Assembly (NCBI GenBank): GCA_012519425.1
Contig: JAAYQF010000011.1
Span: 10,658 to 74,657 of the forward strand
From: Bacteroidales bacterium
Lineage (GTDB): Bacteria; Bacteroidota; Bacteroidia; Bacteroidales; Paludibacteraceae
DNA length: 64,000 nt
Direction: 5' to 3'
Of the stretch, positions 8,867 through 56,970 are shown piece after piece. Position 1 is the first letter of the stretch; every line of letters begins with the position of its first letter. The notes under the pieces were generated by a model. That model was not told the origin of the DNA, ran no database searches, and was given only the letters and a program-made list of their open reading frames with translations. Made by a program: the position numbers and the translations under genes.

Positions 8867-9010
8867 GGTCCGCGGTCCGTGGTCCGTGGATGCGTGGTAC
8901 GGGTTCCGCGGTAGCGCGGTCGCGAGTTCGCAATTTTTTTGAGCGAAGCGTATATGGCTTGGTTTTTTTGTTTCGTTTTTTTGTATCAAGACAAAACATG
9001 AAGAGGAATG
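8867..9010 (+). repeat. Repeat-system locus E1: GC-rich heptamer tract plus 3' pseudoknot module
   Basis: GGTCCGC GGTCCGT GGTCCGT ... GTTCCGC directly after the alr stop, then TTTTTGAGCGAAGCG and TCAAGACAAAACATGAAG, which resemble the 14.9 and 35.9 kb copies. Confidence 0.8.
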
Positions 9011-12362: not shown

Positions 12363-12387
12363 CGACCTCGTCCGATGAGCCAAAAAA
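12363..12387 (+). repeat. Repeat-system fragment (5' segment of the 14.9-kb element)
   Basis: CGACCTCGTCCGATGAGCCAAAAAA matches the reverse complement of 15019-15043 at 24/25 nt. Confidence 0.8.
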
Positions 12388-14861: not shown

Positions 14862-15100
14862 ACTTCTCTTCATTTTTTGGCTTGAACCAAAAAACGAAGC
14901 AAAAAAGTTCAAGACTGCGCCCGCTTCGCTCAAAAAATTAGCGCTCGAACAGCTAAATCGTCCAAACTCGCAACTTCGTTGCTCAAACAAGGACGATTCT
15001 TAACGCTGTTCTCACTTATTTTTTGGCTCACCGGACGAGGTCGGTTTGCGTTGTACAACGTAACCCCCGGAACACGCACCGCGTAACTCGTAACTTAACC
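14862..15100 (-). repeat. Repeat-system locus E2: longest copy of the structured element (candidate ncRNA or ssDNA element)
   Basis: Nested inverted repeats (GAACAGC/GCTGTTC, AATCGTCC/GGACGATT, GCAAC-GAA-GTTGC), a 3' pseudoknot and a 5' heptamer tract; partial copies at 8.9, 12.4 and 35.9 kb. Confidence 0.8.
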
Positions 15101-23376: not shown

Positions 23377-24527
23377 AAACCAAAAGAACGAAATATAGAA
23401 AATCTTCTAAATCAGCAAATTTGCTTGGGACAACCCAAATATTGCTGCATGCCAATCGAATTTTAATCGGGTTGCTCTTTGTCTTTTCAGGTTTTGTAAA
23501 AGCCGTTGATCCTTTAGGAACCGTCTATAAAATCGAAGATTATTTGATTGCATTTGACGGTTTTTTTGTTGGCCTGACGTTTTTGGCTTTTCCCGCTGCC
23601 ATTTGTTTGATTGCTTTAGAGCTTTTGATTGGATTGAATTTGCTGTTTAAAGTATGGCCTAAAATAACAAGTTGGATTGCCTTGGTGTTTATGTTGTTCA
23701 TGACCGCATTAACTTTGTACATCGCTATCTATAATCCGGTTTCAGATTGCGGATGTTTCGGTGATGCACTTGTCATCTCCAATTGGCAGACCTTCTTTAA
23801 AGATGTTGTACTGCTGATCATGATAATTATTCTGCTGTTTGGGAAGAAACAGCTTCGGCCAATCTATCAATCTGGCTTCGAATGGACCTTGGTCGTTCTT
23901 TTTGTCATAGTTGCATTTGGCTTTATGGCTTATAATCTGACACATTTGCCTGTCATTGATTTCAGACCTTATAAAACAGGTGTGAATATTCAGGAAGCTA
24001 TGAGATACCCGGAGGATGCACCGAGGGATGTGTATGAATACGTTTTTACCTACGAAAAGGATGGAATAAAGAGGGAGTTTTCTTTAGAAGAAATTCCTGA
24101 TAGTACCTGGACTTTTATTTCACAAGAAACTAAATTAATATCTGAGGGTTATCAGCCGCCCATACAGGATTTTGAGATCCTTACGGCAAGTTATGAAGAT
24201 CTGACGGATGAAATACTCGAATATCAGGGTGTTACCTACTTAATAATATCTTACGACCTGAGTTTGGCATCCGAAAAAAGTATGGAACGCATCAAATCTT
24301 TTGTGACGCATCAGAGACAGCAAGATCAGGATGTGAAAATATATGCATTGACAGCTTCTTCAACCGATGATATACAGGATTTTAAATTAAAATACGATCT
24401 TGATTTCCCTTTCTATACAACGGATCCCATTACACTTAAAACGATAATTCGGGCCAATCCCGGCGTCATGAAGCTGAAAGCCGGAACGATAAAAGGGAAA
24501 TGGAATTGGAGGCAGATTAAAAATTAA
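23367..24527 (+). CDS. BT_3928 family DoxX/MauE membrane protein with thioredoxin-like C-terminus
   Basis: SGFVKAVDPLG, DCGCFGDA, DFRPYKTG, KTIIRANPG. Confidence 0.88.
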   Translation: MFLKTKRTKYRKSSKSANLLGTTQILLHANRILIGLLFVFSGFVKAVDPLGTVYKIEDYLIAFDGFFVGLTFLAFPAAICLIALELLIGLNLLFKVWPKITSWIALVFMLFMTALTLYIAIYNPVSDCGCFGDALVISNWQTFFKDVVLLIMIIILLFGKKQLRPIYQSGFEWTLVVLFVIVAFGFMAYNLTHLPVIDFRPYKTGVNIQEAMRYPEDAPRDVYEYVFTYEKDGIKREFSLEEIPDSTWTFISQETKLISEGYQPPIQDFEILTASYEDLTDEILEYQGVTYLIISYDLSLASEKSMERIKSFVTHQRQQDQDVKIYALTASSTDDIQDFKLKYDLDFPFYTTDPITLKTIIRANPGVMKLKAGTIKGKWNWRQIKN

Positions 24528-24833
24528 GAACAAAGAACAAAGAACAAAGACAAAGACAAATTGTTTAATGTTTAGTGTTTAATTTTGTTGAATTGTTTAA
24601 TTGTTTAATCGTTTAATCGTTGAATTGTTGAATTGTTGAATTGAGAACAAAAAGTAAAGATAAAAAAACGATGAATGAAGAAGAACAAAGAGCAAAGAAC
24701 AAAGACAAAAGATGAATCAACTAAGAACGAAAAGTGAAGAACGATGAACAAAGAAGACCATGCGACCCCGTAACTTCTCTAACTTCTTTAACTTCTCTAA
24801 CTTCCAAAATATAACTTCAACACTAAAAACTAT
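24528..24833 (-). repeat. Mosaic short-tandem-repeat array A (inverted relative to B and C)
   Basis: (AGAACAA)n, (TGTTTAA)n, (ATTGTTGA)n, (AACTTCTCT)n; 24635-24675 is the exact reverse complement of 40830-40870. Confidence 0.9.
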
Positions 24834-27027: not shown

Positions 27028-27134
27028 GGCGGTTTCTCAAAGGTACCCAACTGCTGCGGTCTGAGTTCCGGGTTCCGCGGTGCGTGGTCGCGAGGTTGTT
27101 TTTTTAAGTTAAATATTGGTTTTGAGACGGCCTC
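27028..27134 (+). mobile_element. MITE-like element M1 with imperfect terminal IRs and an internal heptamer tract
   Basis: Left GGCGGTTTCTCAAA, right TTTTGAGACGGCCTC; internal AGTTCCG GGTTCCG CGGTGCG TGGTCGCG; colinear with the reverse complement of 30316-30440. Confidence 0.6.
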
Positions 27135-27320
27135 TTTGGTGTTTTTTTTAAAATTTTCTTATTTTTGGAGTCTGTATTCAAGTTTTTTTAGAAAAATATA
27201 TAATTGTTTATTGATATGAAACGAACATGAACTAATTTAATCATTCGCAGGGCGAAATAATTGATTAAATTAGTTCATCGAGAGTTCCATATGACAACTA
27301 AAAGAATAAATTATAATCAT

Positions 27321-29084
27321 ATGAAAGTAACACGCATTTTCGATTTGCTGGATAATTATTTGGAAAATTATCCAAACCAAGATGCTGCTTTAGCAAGTAA
27401 AAGAGGTGGACAGTGGAAAAAGATCAGCATACAACAATATGTTGAAACAGTGAATAACATCAGCTACGGTATGTTAAAGATGGGTGTAAAACCCGGTGAT
27501 AATATCGGAATCGTGAGTGGAAACCGTCCTGAATGGAACATGCTCGACATGGCCATTATGCAAGTGGGTGCTATTTCTATTCCTATTTATCCTACCGTCA
27601 GCCAGGATGATTATCGTTACATCCTCAATCATGCTGAAATGAAGATGATTTTCATTGAGGGGAAAGAGCTTCGTCGTAAACTTGAGCCGGTTATGCCGGA
27701 AATTAAAACCTTGAAAGATATTTTCTTATTTGATGAACAAGATGGAGAATATAAGTATTTAGATCAACTGATCCAATTGGGAATAGAAAATCCGAATGCC
27801 GAAAAATTGGCGAAGATAAAAGCCGGTATCAAAGGTGGAGATATGGCTACTATCATTTATACCTCCGGTACAACCGGTGATCCGAAAGGAGTCATGTTAT
27901 CACACAGCAACCTTATCAATCAGCTTGATAACCTGAAGATGACTCCTGCAAAATGGAGTAAAGTGGCATTGAGTTTCCTTCCTTTGTGTCATGCCTACGA
28001 ACGCATCCTGGTGTATCTGTATCAATACCTGGGAATGTCGGTCTATTATGCCGAAAATTTAGGTACTATTGCCGAAAACATCAAGGAAGTACAGCCGACC
28101 ATGATGACTGCCGTGCCGCGCGTATTAGAAAAAATATACGACAAGTTATTCCTTGCAGGTAAAAAACTACCTTTTATTCAGAAAAGAATTTATTATTGGG
28201 CTTTCAATCTGGCCAAGAAATATCAGTTGGAAGGTAACAGCTGGTGCTACAGGCAACAGTTAAAATTAGCCGATAAGCTGATTTACAGAAAATGGAGAGA
28301 AGCCCTGGGTGGTAATTTTGACATTGTGGTTTCAGGAGGTTCTTCTCTTCAGCCCCACATGGGTTCTTTCTTCTCAGCTATAGGTATGCCGGTCTTTGAA
28401 GGGTATGGTTTGAGTGAAACCTCTCCGGTAATTGCCGTTAGTCGACGTGGTAAACATGGAAGAAAATTTGGTACGGTAGGACCGCCACTCCCCGGTGTGG
28501 AAGTGAAATTAGGTGATCGTGATGAGATTTTGTGCCGTGGACATAATGTCATGCTTGGCTACTATCGCAATCCTGAACTAACTGCAGAAGTAATTGATGA
28601 AGACGGTTGGTTCCATACGGGAGATACCGGTAAATTTACTCCTGAAGGTCAATTGATTGTAACCGGACGTCTAAAGAGTATTTTTAAAACATCTTTTGGA
28701 AAATACATCAATCCTCAAGCTATTGAATCCAAGTTCACTGAATCACCTTTCATTGATAATATGATCGTGTTGGGAGAAAATAAAAAGTTTGCAGCTGCCC
28801 TTATTGCGCCGGATTTTGTATTCTTAAAATCATGGTGCGCAGCCAATGAAATTCCTTATTCAACAAATGTTGAAATGGTTCAAAATCCGGATGTCTTGAG
28901 ACGTTTTGATGAAGAAATAAAAAAATATAATGCTCTCTTTGGAGATTATGAACAAATAAAGCGCTGGCAACTGGTGACCGAAGAGTGGTCGCAATCTTCC
29001 GGATTCTTGTCTCCAACCTTAAAGATCAAACGAAATGTGTTGGGAGAGTTTTATGCCGAAAGAATTGAAAAATTGTTCTCGTAA
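27321..29084 (+). CDS. Long-chain fatty acid-CoA ligase (AMP-binding family)
   Basis: YTSGTTGDPKG, GYGLSET, GWFHTGD; start uncertain (27291 or 27321). Confidence 0.92.
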   Translation: MKVTRIFDLLDNYLENYPNQDAALASKRGGQWKKISIQQYVETVNNISYGMLKMGVKPGDNIGIVSGNRPEWNMLDMAIMQVGAISIPIYPTVSQDDYRYILNHAEMKMIFIEGKELRRKLEPVMPEIKTLKDIFLFDEQDGEYKYLDQLIQLGIENPNAEKLAKIKAGIKGGDMATIIYTSGTTGDPKGVMLSHSNLINQLDNLKMTPAKWSKVALSFLPLCHAYERILVYLYQYLGMSVYYAENLGTIAENIKEVQPTMMTAVPRVLEKIYDKLFLAGKKLPFIQKRIYYWAFNLAKKYQLEGNSWCYRQQLKLADKLIYRKWREALGGNFDIVVSGGSSLQPHMGSFFSAIGMPVFEGYGLSETSPVIAVSRRGKHGRKFGTVGPPLPGVEVKLGDRDEILCRGHNVMLGYYRNPELTAEVIDEDGWFHTGDTGKFTPEGQLIVTGRLKSIFKTSFGKYINPQAIESKFTESPFIDNMIVLGENKKFAAALIAPDFVFLKSWCAANEIPYSTNVEMVQNPDVLRRFDEEIKKYNALFGDYEQIKRWQLVTEEWSQSSGFLSPTLKIKRNVLGEFYAERIEKLFS

Positions 29085-35861: not shown

Positions 35862-36004
35862 ACTTTCTTCATTTTTTTGTCTTGACCGAAGCAAAAAAAA
35901 GTCAAGACTGTGCCCGCTTCGCTCGAGAAATTAACTTCATAATTTGCAATCTTCCGACCTCGGAACCCGCTACCCCGGAACCCGGAACGCGGAACTCGCT
36001 ACTA
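35862..36004 (-). repeat. Repeat-system locus E3: heptamer tract plus shortened pseudoknot module
   Basis: Abuts the uvrA stop; 35903-35924 matches 14910-14931 at 21/22 nt. Confidence 0.85.
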
Positions 36005-40292: not shown

Positions 40293-40685
40293 ATGGAAAC
40301 TGAAGTACGAATAGATAAATGGCTGTGGGCAGTCCGCCTCTATAAAACCCGCACATTGGCTGCTGAGGCTTGTAAAAAGGGGAAAGTCCTGGTTGACGGT
40401 GTTGAAGTTAAGCCTTCACGCAATGTCAAGATAGGTGATATCATTCAAGTCAAACGAAACCCGGTACTTTTTTCCTATGAGGTGCTGGCACTGACAGAAA
40501 GAAGGGTGGGTGCCAGGTTGGTTCCTGAATTGATCAAAGACGTCACTACTCCCGATCAGTTGGAATTGTATGAACTGGGTAAAATCGCTGCCAAGAGTAA
40601 TCGTCAGAGAGGTAAAGGACGACCGACCAAAAAAGAGAGGCGAGATCTGGAAGCCTTCCTTGAACCTGTTTTTTGGGAAGAATAA
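40293..40685 (+). CDS. hslR: RNA-binding S4 domain protein (Hsp15)
   Basis: RIDKWLWAVRLYKTR, GRPTKKERR. Confidence 0.93.
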   Translation: METEVRIDKWLWAVRLYKTRTLAAEACKKGKVLVDGVEVKPSRNVKIGDIIQVKRNPVLFSYEVLALTERRVGARLVPELIKDVTTPDQLELYELGKIAAKSNRQRGKGRPTKKERRDLEAFLEPVFWEE

Positions 40686-40690
40686 TATTT

Positions 40691-41067
40691 GGTAGTTAGT
40701 AGTTGGTAGTTAGTAGTTAGTAGTTTTTTTGGAAGTTATTGAAGTTAAAGAAGTTAGGGAAGTTACGGGGTCCGAGGTCCGAGTTCCGCGGTCGCGAGTT
40801 TAGCTTTTGGCTCTTGGCTTTGTTCTTCGTTCATCGTTTTTTTATCTTTACTTTTTGTTCTCAATTCAACGATTCAACAATTCAACGATTCAACAGTTCA
40901 ACGACTCAACAATTCAACAATTCAACAAAATTAAACATTAAACATTAAACATTAAACAATTTGTCTTTACTCTTTTGTCTTTGTTCTTTGCTCTTTGTTC
41001 TTCTTCGTTCTTCGTTTTTAGTTGATCTGTCTTTATTCTTTTGTCTTTGTTCTTTGCTCTTTGTTCT
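40691..41067 (+). repeat. Mosaic short-tandem-repeat array B (most complete copy)
   Basis: (RGTAGTT)5-(GAAGTTANN)4-(NGKTCCG)3-T-rich-(RATTCAAC-like)8-(ATTAAAC)4-(CTTTGTT-like)n; fills the whole intergenic region. Confidence 0.92.
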
Positions 41068-41073
41068 GTAAAC

Positions 41074-41619
41074 ATGCTCATCGCTTCTTATCTTAAAAAT
41101 ACGAACATCGCCGAATACTTGCTGTATATGTGGCAGGTGGAAGATACCATACGTGCCATGAATTTTGATATTGGTCGCATTGAAAAATCGGTGGTCGACC
41201 GCCTTCCAGTGAAAGATGAAAATGAACGTCTTACTGTTTTAACCTGGTATGAAGACTTGATAGACATGATGCGACGTGAAAATGTGATGGACAAAGGACA
41301 TTTACAAATAAATAAAAATACGATCGTCGACCTTGACGACTTTCATTATTTAATCTTGGGCTCTGAGCGTGTTCCGGCATATAATGCCAAATACCTGCAT
41401 GTGTTGCCGTTTATTAATCAATTCAGACAGAAGTCGGAGGCGGGTTTAACAGACATTGAACTGTGCTTTAATTTCCAATATGGTATATTGATGCTCAGAT
41501 TACAGAAAAAAGAGATCAGTGCGGAGACACTTAAAACACAGGAAGAAATTTCAAAGTTTTTGGTTTTACTAACTAAAAATTACCATGCTTTTGCGGAAGG
41601 CAAGCTTGACTTGGAATAA
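41074..41619 (+). CDS. DUF4924 family protein
   Basis: NIAEYLLYMWQVEDTIRA, GHLQINKN, IELCF..YG.LMLRLQKKEIS.ET; the upstream extension in the ORF track is repeat-derived. Confidence 0.85.
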   Translation: MLIASYLKNTNIAEYLLYMWQVEDTIRAMNFDIGRIEKSVVDRLPVKDENERLTVLTWYEDLIDMMRRENVMDKGHLQINKNTIVDLDDFHYLILGSERVPAYNAKYLHVLPFINQFRQKSEAGLTDIELCFNFQYGILMLRLQKKEISAETLKTQEEISKFLVLLTKNYHAFAEGKLDLE

Positions 41620-46623: not shown

Positions 46624-46914
46624 GGTAGTTGGTAGTTGGTAGTTAGTAGTTAGTAGTTAGTAGTTAGTAGTTTTGGAAATTAGGGAAGTTAAGGAGAAGT
46701 TAAAGAAGTTAGCGTGTTCCGAGTTCCGGGGTCGCGAGTTTAGCTTTTGGCTTTGTTCTTCGTTCATCGTTCTTCGTTCTTAGTTAAATTTGTCTTTGTT
46801 CTTTTGTCTTTACTCTTTGTTCTCAGTTCAACAATTCAACGATTCAACACTACACACTACACACTACACACTAAACATTAAACAATTTGTCTTTATTCTT
46901 TGCTCTTTGTTCTT
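46624..46914 (+). repeat. Mosaic short-tandem-repeat array C
   Basis: (RGTAGTT)7-(GAAGTTA..)n-heptamers-(ATTCAAC-like)3-(ACTACAC)3-ACTAAAC-ATTAAAC; shares GGTCGCGAGTTTAGCTTTTGGCT with array B. Confidence 0.92.
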
Positions 46915-47001
46915 CAATAAAATCTTGAAAATTGCACAAAATGTTGCAAGTTGTGCAAAATATATCTATTTTTGCAGCCGTAATTTTAAATCCAATCAAA
47001 A

Positions 47002-56023: not shown

Positions 56024-56166
56024 ATTAATTCATCGGGAATTTCAAAAAACAACTTAAAATAAATTATAACCATATGAAACAGCCATTTGAGAAAATTCTC
56101 AAACACAAGGAAATGATTAATGGCGTGTTCCATGTGACCTTAATGTAAAAAATAAAAAATAAACAC

Positions 56167-56970
56167 ATGAAAAAGAGAATTGCAATATTGTTTGTTGCAA
56201 GCGTTTTATTACTGATAATTTTGCTGTGGATGGGAGTTTCTTCCACAATCAGAGACTTGCCCGAAATTATTGAAGATGCCCGTTTGTCAGTTTTGATTGA
56301 ACCTGGTGAACATGGACTTGTGCGCGATAGCTCTCAAGCCTATGGTTTTCAATATGAGTTGATAAAAATATTTGCAGATTCGTTGGATGTGGAACTTTCA
56401 ATCATTCATTCGTCCGGGAAAGGAAATGACGTGCGCAGACTTCAAAAAGGCAAGGCGGACGTATGGGTAGCTCTGATGCCTGTCACAACCTGCTTTGAAC
56501 ATACGGTTGTTTGCCTGACACCCATTATTTCTACGAGGTTGATGTTGGTTCAGCCAAAGGCAGATGTTACTTCAAAAGTTCGCAAGCAATACGAATTAGA
56601 TGGAGACACCATTTGGGTACAGAAAAATTCTCCCTATATCGAAAGACTGAATGATCTTGCCGACGAAATAGCCTTTGATCCGGTGATCATTGAAATGCGG
56701 GCAAGCGGCTACGAAGAGATGGTGGATTTGGTCCAAAAAGGAGAGATCAGGTTTACCATTTGCCCCGAATATCTGACAGAACAATTCAAAACAAAGTATG
56801 ATCAGGTTGATTTCAGTCTACCCTTGAGTTTGAAGCATGATTTGTCCTGGTGTGTGAATGCGCATTCACCTTTGCTACAAGAGCGGTTGAATGAATTTTT
56901 ATATGCATTCAAAGAAACGAATGATTTCCAGGCACTATTAAAGAAGTATAATTATCAAGTTGAATTTTAA
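56167..56970 (+). CDS. Substrate-binding domain protein (MltF N-terminus-like)
   Basis: DLPEII, GFQYELIKIFA, PBP2 fold pattern; no transglycosylase domain. Confidence 0.7.
   Translation: MKKRIAILFVASVLLLIILLWMGVSSTIRDLPEIIEDARLSVLIEPGEHGLVRDSSQAYGFQYELIKIFADSLDVELSIIHSSGKGNDVRRLQKGKADVWVALMPVTTCFEHTVVCLTPIISTRLMLVQPKADVTSKVRKQYELDGDTIWVQKNSPYIERLNDLADEIAFDPVIIEMRASGYEEMVDLVQKGEIRFTICPEYLTEQFKTKYDQVDFSLPLSLKHDLSWCVNAHSPLLQERLNEFLYAFKETNDFQALLKKYNYQVEF

Follow-up and report, generated by a model that had tools for sequence, protein, structure and literature searches.

Ordered mosaics of 7-9-nt tandem repeats inserted between genes of a Paludibacter-like Bacteroidales bacterium, and their possible kinship to palindromic cassettes carrying PF05635 genes

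The 64,000-nt stretch of DNA analysed here (hereafter the window; GenBank assembly GCA_012519425.1, contig JAAYQF010000011.1, positions 10,658 to 74,657) comes from an uncultured Paludibacter-like Bacteroidales bacterium. It exhibits a 388-nt gap between hslR and a DUF4924 gene that is taken up by six ordered modules of 7-, 8- and 9-nt tandem repeats (array B, 40691-41067). The plus-strand gene order is L25, pth, hslR, array B, DUF4924, rfbA, rfbC and rfbD. The array starts 6 nt past the hslR stop codon (40685) and ends 6 nt short of the DUF4924 ATG (41074), with modules as given in Table 1. An ordered mosaic filling this gap had been reported in a preliminary description of the window, and its coordinates agree with both our direct reading and the output of Tandem Repeats Finder (TRF). 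The closest named DUF4924 homologues are 'Paludibacter sp.' proteins from metagenome-assembled genomes (MAGs), with ~66% identity. Proteins identical to those of the window are found in many assemblies, one of which is labelled as a biogas-fermenter metagenome.

Array B contains no credible open reading frame (ORF), since every frame exhibits 6-12 stop codons and strain alleles differ by a 14-nt indel. No inverted repeat was found within or across the array, the only pair in the 40600-41150 region lying inside hslR. No Rfam family matches it, at gathering or at E<=1 thresholds, and the window as a whole exhibits no rRNA or other Rfam match. The tRNA and tmRNA scans returned nothing in B, and scans for a sigma-70 promoter, an intrinsic terminator or a sense-strand TAnnTTTG box inside B were likewise negative. 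The four absences listed in the preliminary description (unique spacers, terminal inverted repeats, a visible target-site duplication and a credible ORF) all hold. A TTG-initiated ORF lengthens the DUF4924 frame by 33 nt upstream of its ATG, into array B (41041-41073). Several DUF4924 homologues in the databases are 203-204 aa long instead of 181; these entries are possibly gene calls starting inside such arrays, as at the TTG at 41041.

Two homologous copies of the mosaic are present in the window. Array A is inverted and directly abuts the upstream stop codon. Array C lies between divergent genes, pheT and an AMP-binding gene, whose conserved TAnnTTTG -7 boxes are both outside the array. A and B have 101 nt in common at 90% identity, B and C 69 nt at 84%. 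The non-repetitive linkers and the module order are common to the three arrays; the string ATTAAACAATTTGTCTTT is found in A, B and C, GGTCGCGAGTTTAGCTTTTGGCT in B and C, and the right end reads TTTGTTCT. The inverted copy, the preserved order, the linkers and the shared strings are all as first described. RNA of array B folds worse than 100 of 100 shuffled sequences (z-score +2.86), those of A and C at shuffle level. With a period of 7-9 nt and a score of at least 50, TRF returns 10 rows in the window, covering 477 nt, and 0 arrays in 30 first-order Markov simulations of it. Three small GGTYCG-type arrays, each of one module only, had been missing from the preliminary description (Table 1).

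The slippage-type polymorphism in unit number described below would be expected if the arrays were microsatellites of separate origin, each expanded at its own AT-rich intergenic site and unrelated to other elements. Such an independent origin is refuted by the linkers and module order common to the three arrays at 84-90% identity; the same mosaic is moreover found in another species, and simulated sequence yields none. We therefore regard this explanation as highly improbable.

Table 1. Coordinates of the repeat arrays, their modules and the flanking genes in the window.
Feature	Coordinates	Strand	Basis or remark
hslR (S4-domain heat-shock protein 15 type), upstream flank of array B	40293..40685	+	ORF; Pfam PF01479
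Module 1, (GTAGTTR) x5, C-free, G-rich	40691..40725	+	direct reading; TRF GTAGTTA x4.9 at 40692-40725
Module 2, (GAAGTTANN) x4	40732..40767	+	direct reading; TRF GAAGTTAAA x3.8 at 40732-40765
Module 3, GGTCCGN/GTTCCGN units, final GGTCGCGAG	40768..40800	+	direct reading; TRF GGTCCGA x4.1 at 40769-40798
Linker, mostly non-repetitive (AGTTTAGCTTTTGGCTCTTGGCT, TTCTTCGTTCATCG, T-run, ATCTTTACTTTTTGTTCTC)	40797..40861	+	common to arrays A, B and C
Module 4, (AATTCAAC-like 8-mer) x8, G-poor	40862..40928	+	direct reading; TRF CAATTCAA x8.4
Module 5, (ATTAAAC) x4	40930..40958	+	direct reading; TRF x4.1, 100% matches
Module 6, TTTGTYC-type 7/14-mers x15, last string TTTGTTCT	40960..41067	+	direct reading; TRF TTTGTTC-type
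DUF4924 gene, downstream flank of array B	41074..41619	+	ORF; homologues
Array A, inverted homologous copy between MauE-like gene and tpiA	24526..24830	-	
Array C, homologous copy between divergent pheT and AMP-binding genes	46625..46915	+	
Solo GGTYCGN array, then GGTCGCGAG and T-run	8867..8921	+	directly past a stop codon
Solo GTTCCG/GGTCGCGAG module and T-run	27060..27096	+	44 nt past a stop codon
Solo GGTTCCG array	35957..36002	-	directly past uvrA stop

The arrays are lineage-specific insertions, because the same junctions are short in syntenic relatives. The hslR-DUF4924 junction, 388 nt long in the window, measures 27 nt in one relative (L128/L254, DUF4924 72% identical; L with three digits denotes loci fetched for comparison) and 3 nt in another (L131/L253, 70%). 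The pheT-AMP-binding gap is 436 nt in the window versus 202 and 131 nt in relatives, and the DUF7033-uvrA gap 183 nt versus 9 and 2 nt. The gene order is kept in the relatives while the gap lengths change. In a sister species (L122, DUF4924 91% identical), the hslR-DUF4924 junction is 207 nt long and holds a different mosaic, composed of inverted CCCCTAAAT / GGGGATTTA arrays and TTCTTCA (L122:2293-2501). An extra filler of 233 nt is found there between pth and hslR (L122:1667-1901), where the window gap is 24 nt. The sequence GGGGTTGGGGG is also part of the mosaic filling both L122 junctions, and similar GGGGATTTAGGGG tracts are found in L056, L146 and L159. Since there is no room for a promoter between array B and the ATG, and the junction of relatives is only 3-27 nt, we infer that DUF4924 is transcribed through array B from upstream.

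The family is hypervariable, through changes of unit number and module-sized gains and losses. Among strains with identical flanking proteins, junction B is 388, 402 or 185 nt long. In the 402-nt form (strains L005 and L006), Module 6 has one extra 14-nt unit. The 185-nt allele (L002) is without the AATTCAAC and ATTAAAC modules, other T-rich units being present, and its right half, compared in view of a possible replacement from another locus, scores about equally against B (31) and against copies elsewhere (28-43). At junction A, three alleles measure 333, 315 and 228 nt. Two 9-mers are missing from the one of 315 nt. That of 228 nt has lost ~165 nt from between two direct TTTGTTC arrays; GTAGTT and GGAACC modules, not found in the A array of the window, are present in it. 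A longer C allele (+43 nt) exhibits other unit counts, a duplicated linker piece and an extra AATTAAAC block, and the GTAGTT copy number differs. Assembly GCA_900198705.1 combines the B allele of the window with different A and C alleles; therefore, the three arrays change independently.

Copies of the mosaic in the same order are found in another species, 'Bacteroidetes bacterium ADurb.Bin174', which has several of them, four in one 8-kb locus. The order there is GTAGTT, TTTTTTTGG-GAAGTTANN, GAGTTCCG..GGTCGCGAGTT, TAGCTTTT..GGCTC, TTCATCG, AATTCAAC/AATTAAAC and TTTGTC. One further same-order copy lies in a metagenome contig (L205). Two modules, (GAAGTTANN)n and (TTTGTYC)n, occur widely, the former across Bacteroidales. 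A scan for (GAAGTTANN)3 with one genome per species returned at least 114 loci. The 80 matches listed are nearly all from Bacteroidales (Prevotella, Bacteroidaceae, Paludibacter, Alistipes, Dysgonomonas, Prolixibacteraceae), and most genome matches are intergenic. A metagenome scan for TCTTTRTTCTTTGCTCTTTGTTCT, representing the TTTGTYC module, returned at least 119 contigs with unidentified hosts, some of them high in G+C; megablast matched none of the listed contigs to the window, which places all of these in other species. The arrays are independent of context: they are found in an operon interior, in co-directional gaps and between divergent promoters, and array orientation is unbiased in the fetched loci (28 versus 23; 16 versus 25).

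Viral matches to (GAAGTTANN)3 (IMG/VR, L269-L388, giant-virus MAGs included) were set aside. Open frames of at least 150 aa contain 94 of the 120; these repeats encode Glu-Val-Lys and have nothing to do with the intergenic arrays. The TTTGTYC pattern was found in only one viral contig, giving no sign of phage carriage. In a Bacteroidales MAG (L076:3615-3666, minus strand), in-frame GAAGTTAAA-type 9-mers (…EEVKEVKEVKGVKK…) occur inside an apparent etfB coding sequence; therefore 9-mer arrays can also occur in frame within genes.

The 9-mer of Module 2, GAAGTTANN, is found in other Bacteroidales as the inverted-arm unit of palindromic cassettes carrying PF05635 genes. PF05635 corresponds to the 23S rRNA intervening-sequence protein, a pentameric four-helix bundle, and PF13366 to the GxxExxY proteins of the PD-(D/E)XK type. 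In 25 of the 114 retrieved (GAAGTTANN)3 loci, the array is followed 22-407 nt downstream by its reverse complement, the opposite order being found in 0. TTTGTYC arrays are paired as GAACAAA...TTTGTTC (purine-then-pyrimidine) in 17 loci versus 1 reversed. Such pairs are perfect hairpins, as in L037 with a 40-bp stem (RNA fold z-score -16.9). Tight inverted tandem arrays surround nine of the ten PF05635 ORFs found, that is, all nine of standard size, at a distance of 11-33 nt from the ORF in the first four cassettes examined. The cassette ORFs match PF05635 with Pfam E-values of 1e-21 to 1e-39, and NCBIfam TIGR02436. Their arm unit is GAAGTTA in L081, L076, L083 and L084, TAGTTCT in L188, AAAACTA in L146, of GAAAG type in L237, AATGAATA in L217 and TGGTTAA in L059. 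Both PF13366 / TIGR04256 'GxxExxY' ORFs found are likewise framed by inverted arrays. With 1084 control genes of these loci as reference, flank complementarity lies above the 95th percentile in all ten scored cassettes. The gene-flanking arrays differ from the array that retrieved the locus in seven of nine cassettes. Folded as RNA, a whole cassette yields a stem of 50 bp whose loop contains the ORF (z-score -8.5).

Gene-less hairpins and gene-bearing cassettes have in common an inner inverted repeat (AAAGCCATT.. / ..AATGGCTTT), and orthologous etf junctions carry both versions. The order in L081 is etfB, cassette, etfA, hairpin; in L076 it is etfB, hairpin, etfA, cassette. Comparable junctions are thus taken up by versions with a gene, without one, or without a palindrome. 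These junctions lend support to that part of the preliminary description which had proposed recombination platforms for cassette gain or loss. Its mention of 7-9-nt tracts flanking genes for four-helix-bundle 23S rRNA intervening-sequence proteins proves true in other Bacteroidales. The deflating outcome it had envisaged (only three copies, no strain polymorphism, no associated protein family) does not describe the data, which exhibit polymorphism, a wider family and, elsewhere, a protein association.

The arrays also exhibit a polarity. Among array pairs within 300 nt, a C-free 'G-type' array precedes a G-free 'C-type' array in 114 cases versus 24; the ratio is 65:8 for complementary pairs and 49:16 for non-complementary pairs. 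These counts are not independent of one another, and repeat pattern was the basis for choosing the loci. All three mosaic arrays of the window conform, with base fractions of G 0.35 and C 0.09 in the left half versus G 0.10 and C 0.20 in the right. The right half is also rich in U (0.49), and an antisense transcript of the left half would have C 0.35 and G 0.09. The mosaic of the sister species L122 exhibits the opposite polarity (C-type first).

Such a composition could be that of a bidirectional RNA-level insulator. From whichever side it came, a transcript would run through a C-free tract and then a G-poor, C-containing, unstructured one; the latter could load Rho or uncouple the cistrons, and read-through would be attenuated both ways. 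The strand-symmetric base content and the unstructured RNA of array B fit this proposal, as does the single polarity across loci; an insulator would also account for the unbiased orientation. Compared with a Rho utilisation tract, defined by at least 80 nt of unstructured, C-rich and G-poor RNA, array B is unstructured and G-poor in its right half, but U-rich there rather than C-rich. Array C lies between two divergent promoters, where a terminator is needless. Array B lies in an operon that is tightly coupled in relatives, without a downstream promoter, and strong termination would silence an intact and conserved DUF4924. In addition, structure and length differ between strains, and one repeat family has the opposite polarity. 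We consider an insulator function unlikely.

Alternatively, the repeat units could be iterated sites for an oligomeric protein (pentameric PF05635, or a nucleoid, cold-shock or S1-type protein) that would organise DNA or RNA locally or mediate the gain and loss of cassettes. Consistent with this, PF05635 genes are flanked by such arrays, GAAGTTA arms go with each of four related PF05635 proteins (56-72% identical), and the fixed inward polarity of the arms may be compared to the subterminal binding sites of mobile elements. Evidence cited in PMC4679880 for the binding of CspB to heptamer direct repeats would also count for a binding platform. On the other side, unit sequences vary widely among cassettes, and the common GAAGTTA arms may stem from the shared ancestry of whole cassettes instead of a binding specificity. 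The window contains no such gene and its arrays are not conserved between strains, so that a binding platform seems rather improbable to us. Binding arrays or Rho tracts, both put forward in the preliminary description, are weakly suggested by the composition.

The preliminary description had also proposed synthesis by a telomerase-like reverse transcriptase. In a broader form, the arrays would be made de novo and in place, through iterative copying of a short template by such an enzyme or by a slipping polymerase at broken ends. The 7-9-nt units, the abutting arrays and the absence of target-site duplications are compatible with reiterative synthesis, and the polarity fits two 3' ends extended towards each other. 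However, copies across loci and species agree in their non-repetitive linkers, in the order of their modules and in the succession of unit variants. In the palindromic copies of L037 and L081, the two arms mirror each other variant by variant, as fits copies and not independent syntheses. Near arrays and cassettes, no gene for a reverse transcriptase came to notice, though the loci were not scanned systematically. These features disfavour the proposal, and we hold it to be very unlikely.

The reading towards which we lean is that array B is a non-coding, arm-only relative of the palindromic cassettes; copying or recombination would have dispersed it, and slippage would have altered its shape. 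The element would be dispersed, non-autonomous and non-coding, assembled from 7-9-nt tandem-repeat modules, and its insertion took place at an operon junction with hardly any gap in relatives. It would spread by copying or ectopic recombination between arrays, and would be quickly reshaped by replication slippage and by deletion between direct arrays. The kinship is suggested by the shared module types: the cassettes enclose a PF05635 gene, a PF13366 gene or a short loop, and the window copies may have lost, or never had, the complementary arms and the gene. Array B would most likely be a passive, unstructured and transcribed spacer between hslR and DUF4924, of which little or no sequence-specific host function is expected.

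Several observations weigh against this kinship. The putative homology between modules and arms rests on short low-complexity units, for which convergence is possible. No PF05635 or PF13366 gene was found in the window, in agreement with the preliminary description, which had seen no intervening-sequence-protein-like gene there; PF05635 was sought by tblastn and a local hidden Markov model, both without match. The left half of B aligns to the reverse complement of its right half with a score of 10, versus 9.8 +/- 1.5 for shuffled sequences. The corresponding score for C is marginal (15 versus 10.6 +/- 1.7, GTAGTTA against GTAGTGT). A decayed palindrome as the origin of B and C is accordingly not supported, the half-complementarity being too weak for such a claim. 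No target-site duplication is visible at the flanks (TATTTG and GTAAAC for B, GATAGG and TCAATA for C; A abuts a stop codon), and the arrays have no defined left termini. No transposase, recombinase or other mobilising activity was identified; the window was not scanned for Y1 transposases. The fetched loci were selected by repeat pattern and are hence biased towards repeat-rich DNA, and the pair counts are not independent. Finally, the polarity is also found in non-complementary pairs, which hints at a constraint beyond the account that we favour.

Known systems offer partial likenesses. That the mosaic is neither a clustered regularly interspaced short palindromic repeat (CRISPR) array, nor a simple microsatellite, nor a classical miniature inverted-repeat transposable element (MITE) had been stated before, and the defining features of each indeed fail here. 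A CRISPR array has repeats of ~23-50 nt with unique spacers, as opposed to head-to-tail 7-9-nt units without spacers. MITEs were rejected for the lack of terminal inverted repeats and target-site duplication. The likeness to them consists in three non-coding intergenic copies of 290-380 nt within 64 kb, with stops in all frames, and in gene-less hairpins that resemble internally deleted derivatives of gene-bearing elements. The imperfect palindromic unit (~20-40 nt) of repetitive extragenic palindromic (REP) sequences and bacterial interspersed mosaic elements was not found in array B. These elements are similar in being short intergenic repeats arranged in mosaics. The system of REP doublets forming hairpins (REPINs) and REP-associated tyrosine transposases (RAYTs) is similar in having a gene flanked by inverted copies and many gene-less doublets dispersed. 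The flanked genes here are of PF05635 or PF13366, not of the IS200/IS605-type Y1 transposase.

The cyanobacterial short tandemly repeated repetitive (STRR) heptamers, reportedly described by Mazel et al. in 1990, are said to have the consensus units CCCCAGT, TTGGTCA and CAACAGT (STRR1-3). They resemble the arrays in being tandem heptanucleotide units of several families, intergenic and strain-variable. With these consensus units, 0 tandem doublets of any of the three were found in the window. The present arrays differ by their Bacteroidales host and by 7-, 8- and 9-mers in a conserved order with common linkers. We know of no reported link between STRRs and PF05635 cassettes.

Heptamer direct repeats between genes, TAACTGA among them, were described by MacGregor (2015; PMC4679880) from Beggiatoaceae, Cyanobacteria and a few Bacteroidetes. 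In Gramella and Aequorivita other heptamers are present in the same gaps, and the gaps of close relatives are shorter and without repeats (PMC4679880). Most of the TAACTGA repeats read in the forward direction and lie within a few nt before a start codon, and no ordered mosaic or cassette gene is described there (PMC4679880). TAACTGA gives 0 doublets in the window. Unlike these repeats, arrays A, B and C vary in orientation and position, and the fetched loci exhibit no orientation bias. According to Rehm et al. (PMC4692102), reports on 6-9-nt repeats are rare. The term 'undescribed system' of the preliminary description was thus overstated, since the STRR heptamers and the TAACTGA repeats (PMC4679880) are similar and also unexplained.

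The 23S rRNA intervening sequences of Leptospira and Coxiella have complementary termini and an optional S23p ORF, are excised by RNase III, and are deemed selfish and horizontally acquired (PMC4990558). The cassettes found elsewhere resemble them, with long complementary arms forming a stem and a PF05635 ORF in the loop. The window copies differ in having neither ORF nor complementary arms, though ORF-less intervening sequences also exist. Moreover, the elements described here lie between protein genes and not in helix 25 or 45 of the 23S rRNA gene, and their arms are tandem 7-9-mers instead of a unique 28-bp inverted repeat. Simple sequence repeats of phase-variable contingency loci are similar in their unit-number differences between strains (+14 nt in B; two 9-mers fewer in A). 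The difference is that here many different units are concatenated and fill whole gaps, outside any promoter spacer and any ORF, that of a surface-protein gene included. The window array is a variant of intergenic short tandem repeats, in which the defining features of CRISPRs, MITEs, REPs, STRR1-3 and intervening sequences are lacking.

Other repeats are present in the window. The solo [GGTYCGN]n-GGTCGCGAG modules are read in the sense direction, just 3' of stop codons (8867-8950, 27060-27106, 35900-36002), with a T-run after two of them. The sequence GAGCGAAGCG, which contains GCGAAGC, comes after two of the three solo modules, and is also found inside many Prevotella elements (L008, L033, L036). 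GCGAAGC is a DNA mini-hairpin motif of very high stability. A second dispersed repeat of ~185 nt (14865-15049) is 83% identical to L003:4379-4563 of the same species, and a 40-nt piece of it (AAAAAAGTCAAGACTG.GCCCGCTTCGCTC; 35894-35933) adjoins the array downstream of uvrA. A 25-nt inverted pair, CGACCTCGTCCGATGAGCCAAAAAA, 96% complementary, is located in two intergenic regions 2.6 kb apart (12363-12387 and 15019-15043). A conserved 22-nt string, AATAAATTATAAYCATATGAAA, lies across the putative start codons of three genes (27305-27326, 56058-56079, 56151-56172).

To our knowledge, bacterial intergenic heptamer repeats have no accepted origin or function, although they have been known since 1990 (STRR). 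The PF05635 family is very large, and we know of no role for it outside the Avd proteins of diversity-generating retroelements. What appears to be new here is the link between 7-9-mer repeat types and PF05635 / PF13366 genes. Literature searches on PF05635, GxxExxY and PF13366 returned no paper on repeat-flanked cassettes, and a search with the literal repeat sequences found nothing. More tentatively, mosaics, gene-less hairpins and PF05635/PF13366 cassettes might represent a single undescribed class of mobile or self-propagating elements in three different states, in Bacteroidota and apparently in other phyla too. Such elements would be intervening-sequence-like, with arms of tandem 7-9-mers and a fixed purine-then-pyrimidine polarity. 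They would colonise intergenic regions and tight operon junctions, and gain or lose a small gene. The 23S rRNA intervening-sequence protein family would then take part in a genome-wide, REPIN-RAYT-like system. We offer this wider proposal as a possibility only.

The arrays interrupt operons whose genes are closely coupled in relatives, and they may mislead gene callers, possibly so in the DUF4924 start calls. Their length polymorphism at the strain level could serve as a typing marker. Above all, the question of the heptamer repeats and that of PF05635 are joined here, and both become testable if the link is true.

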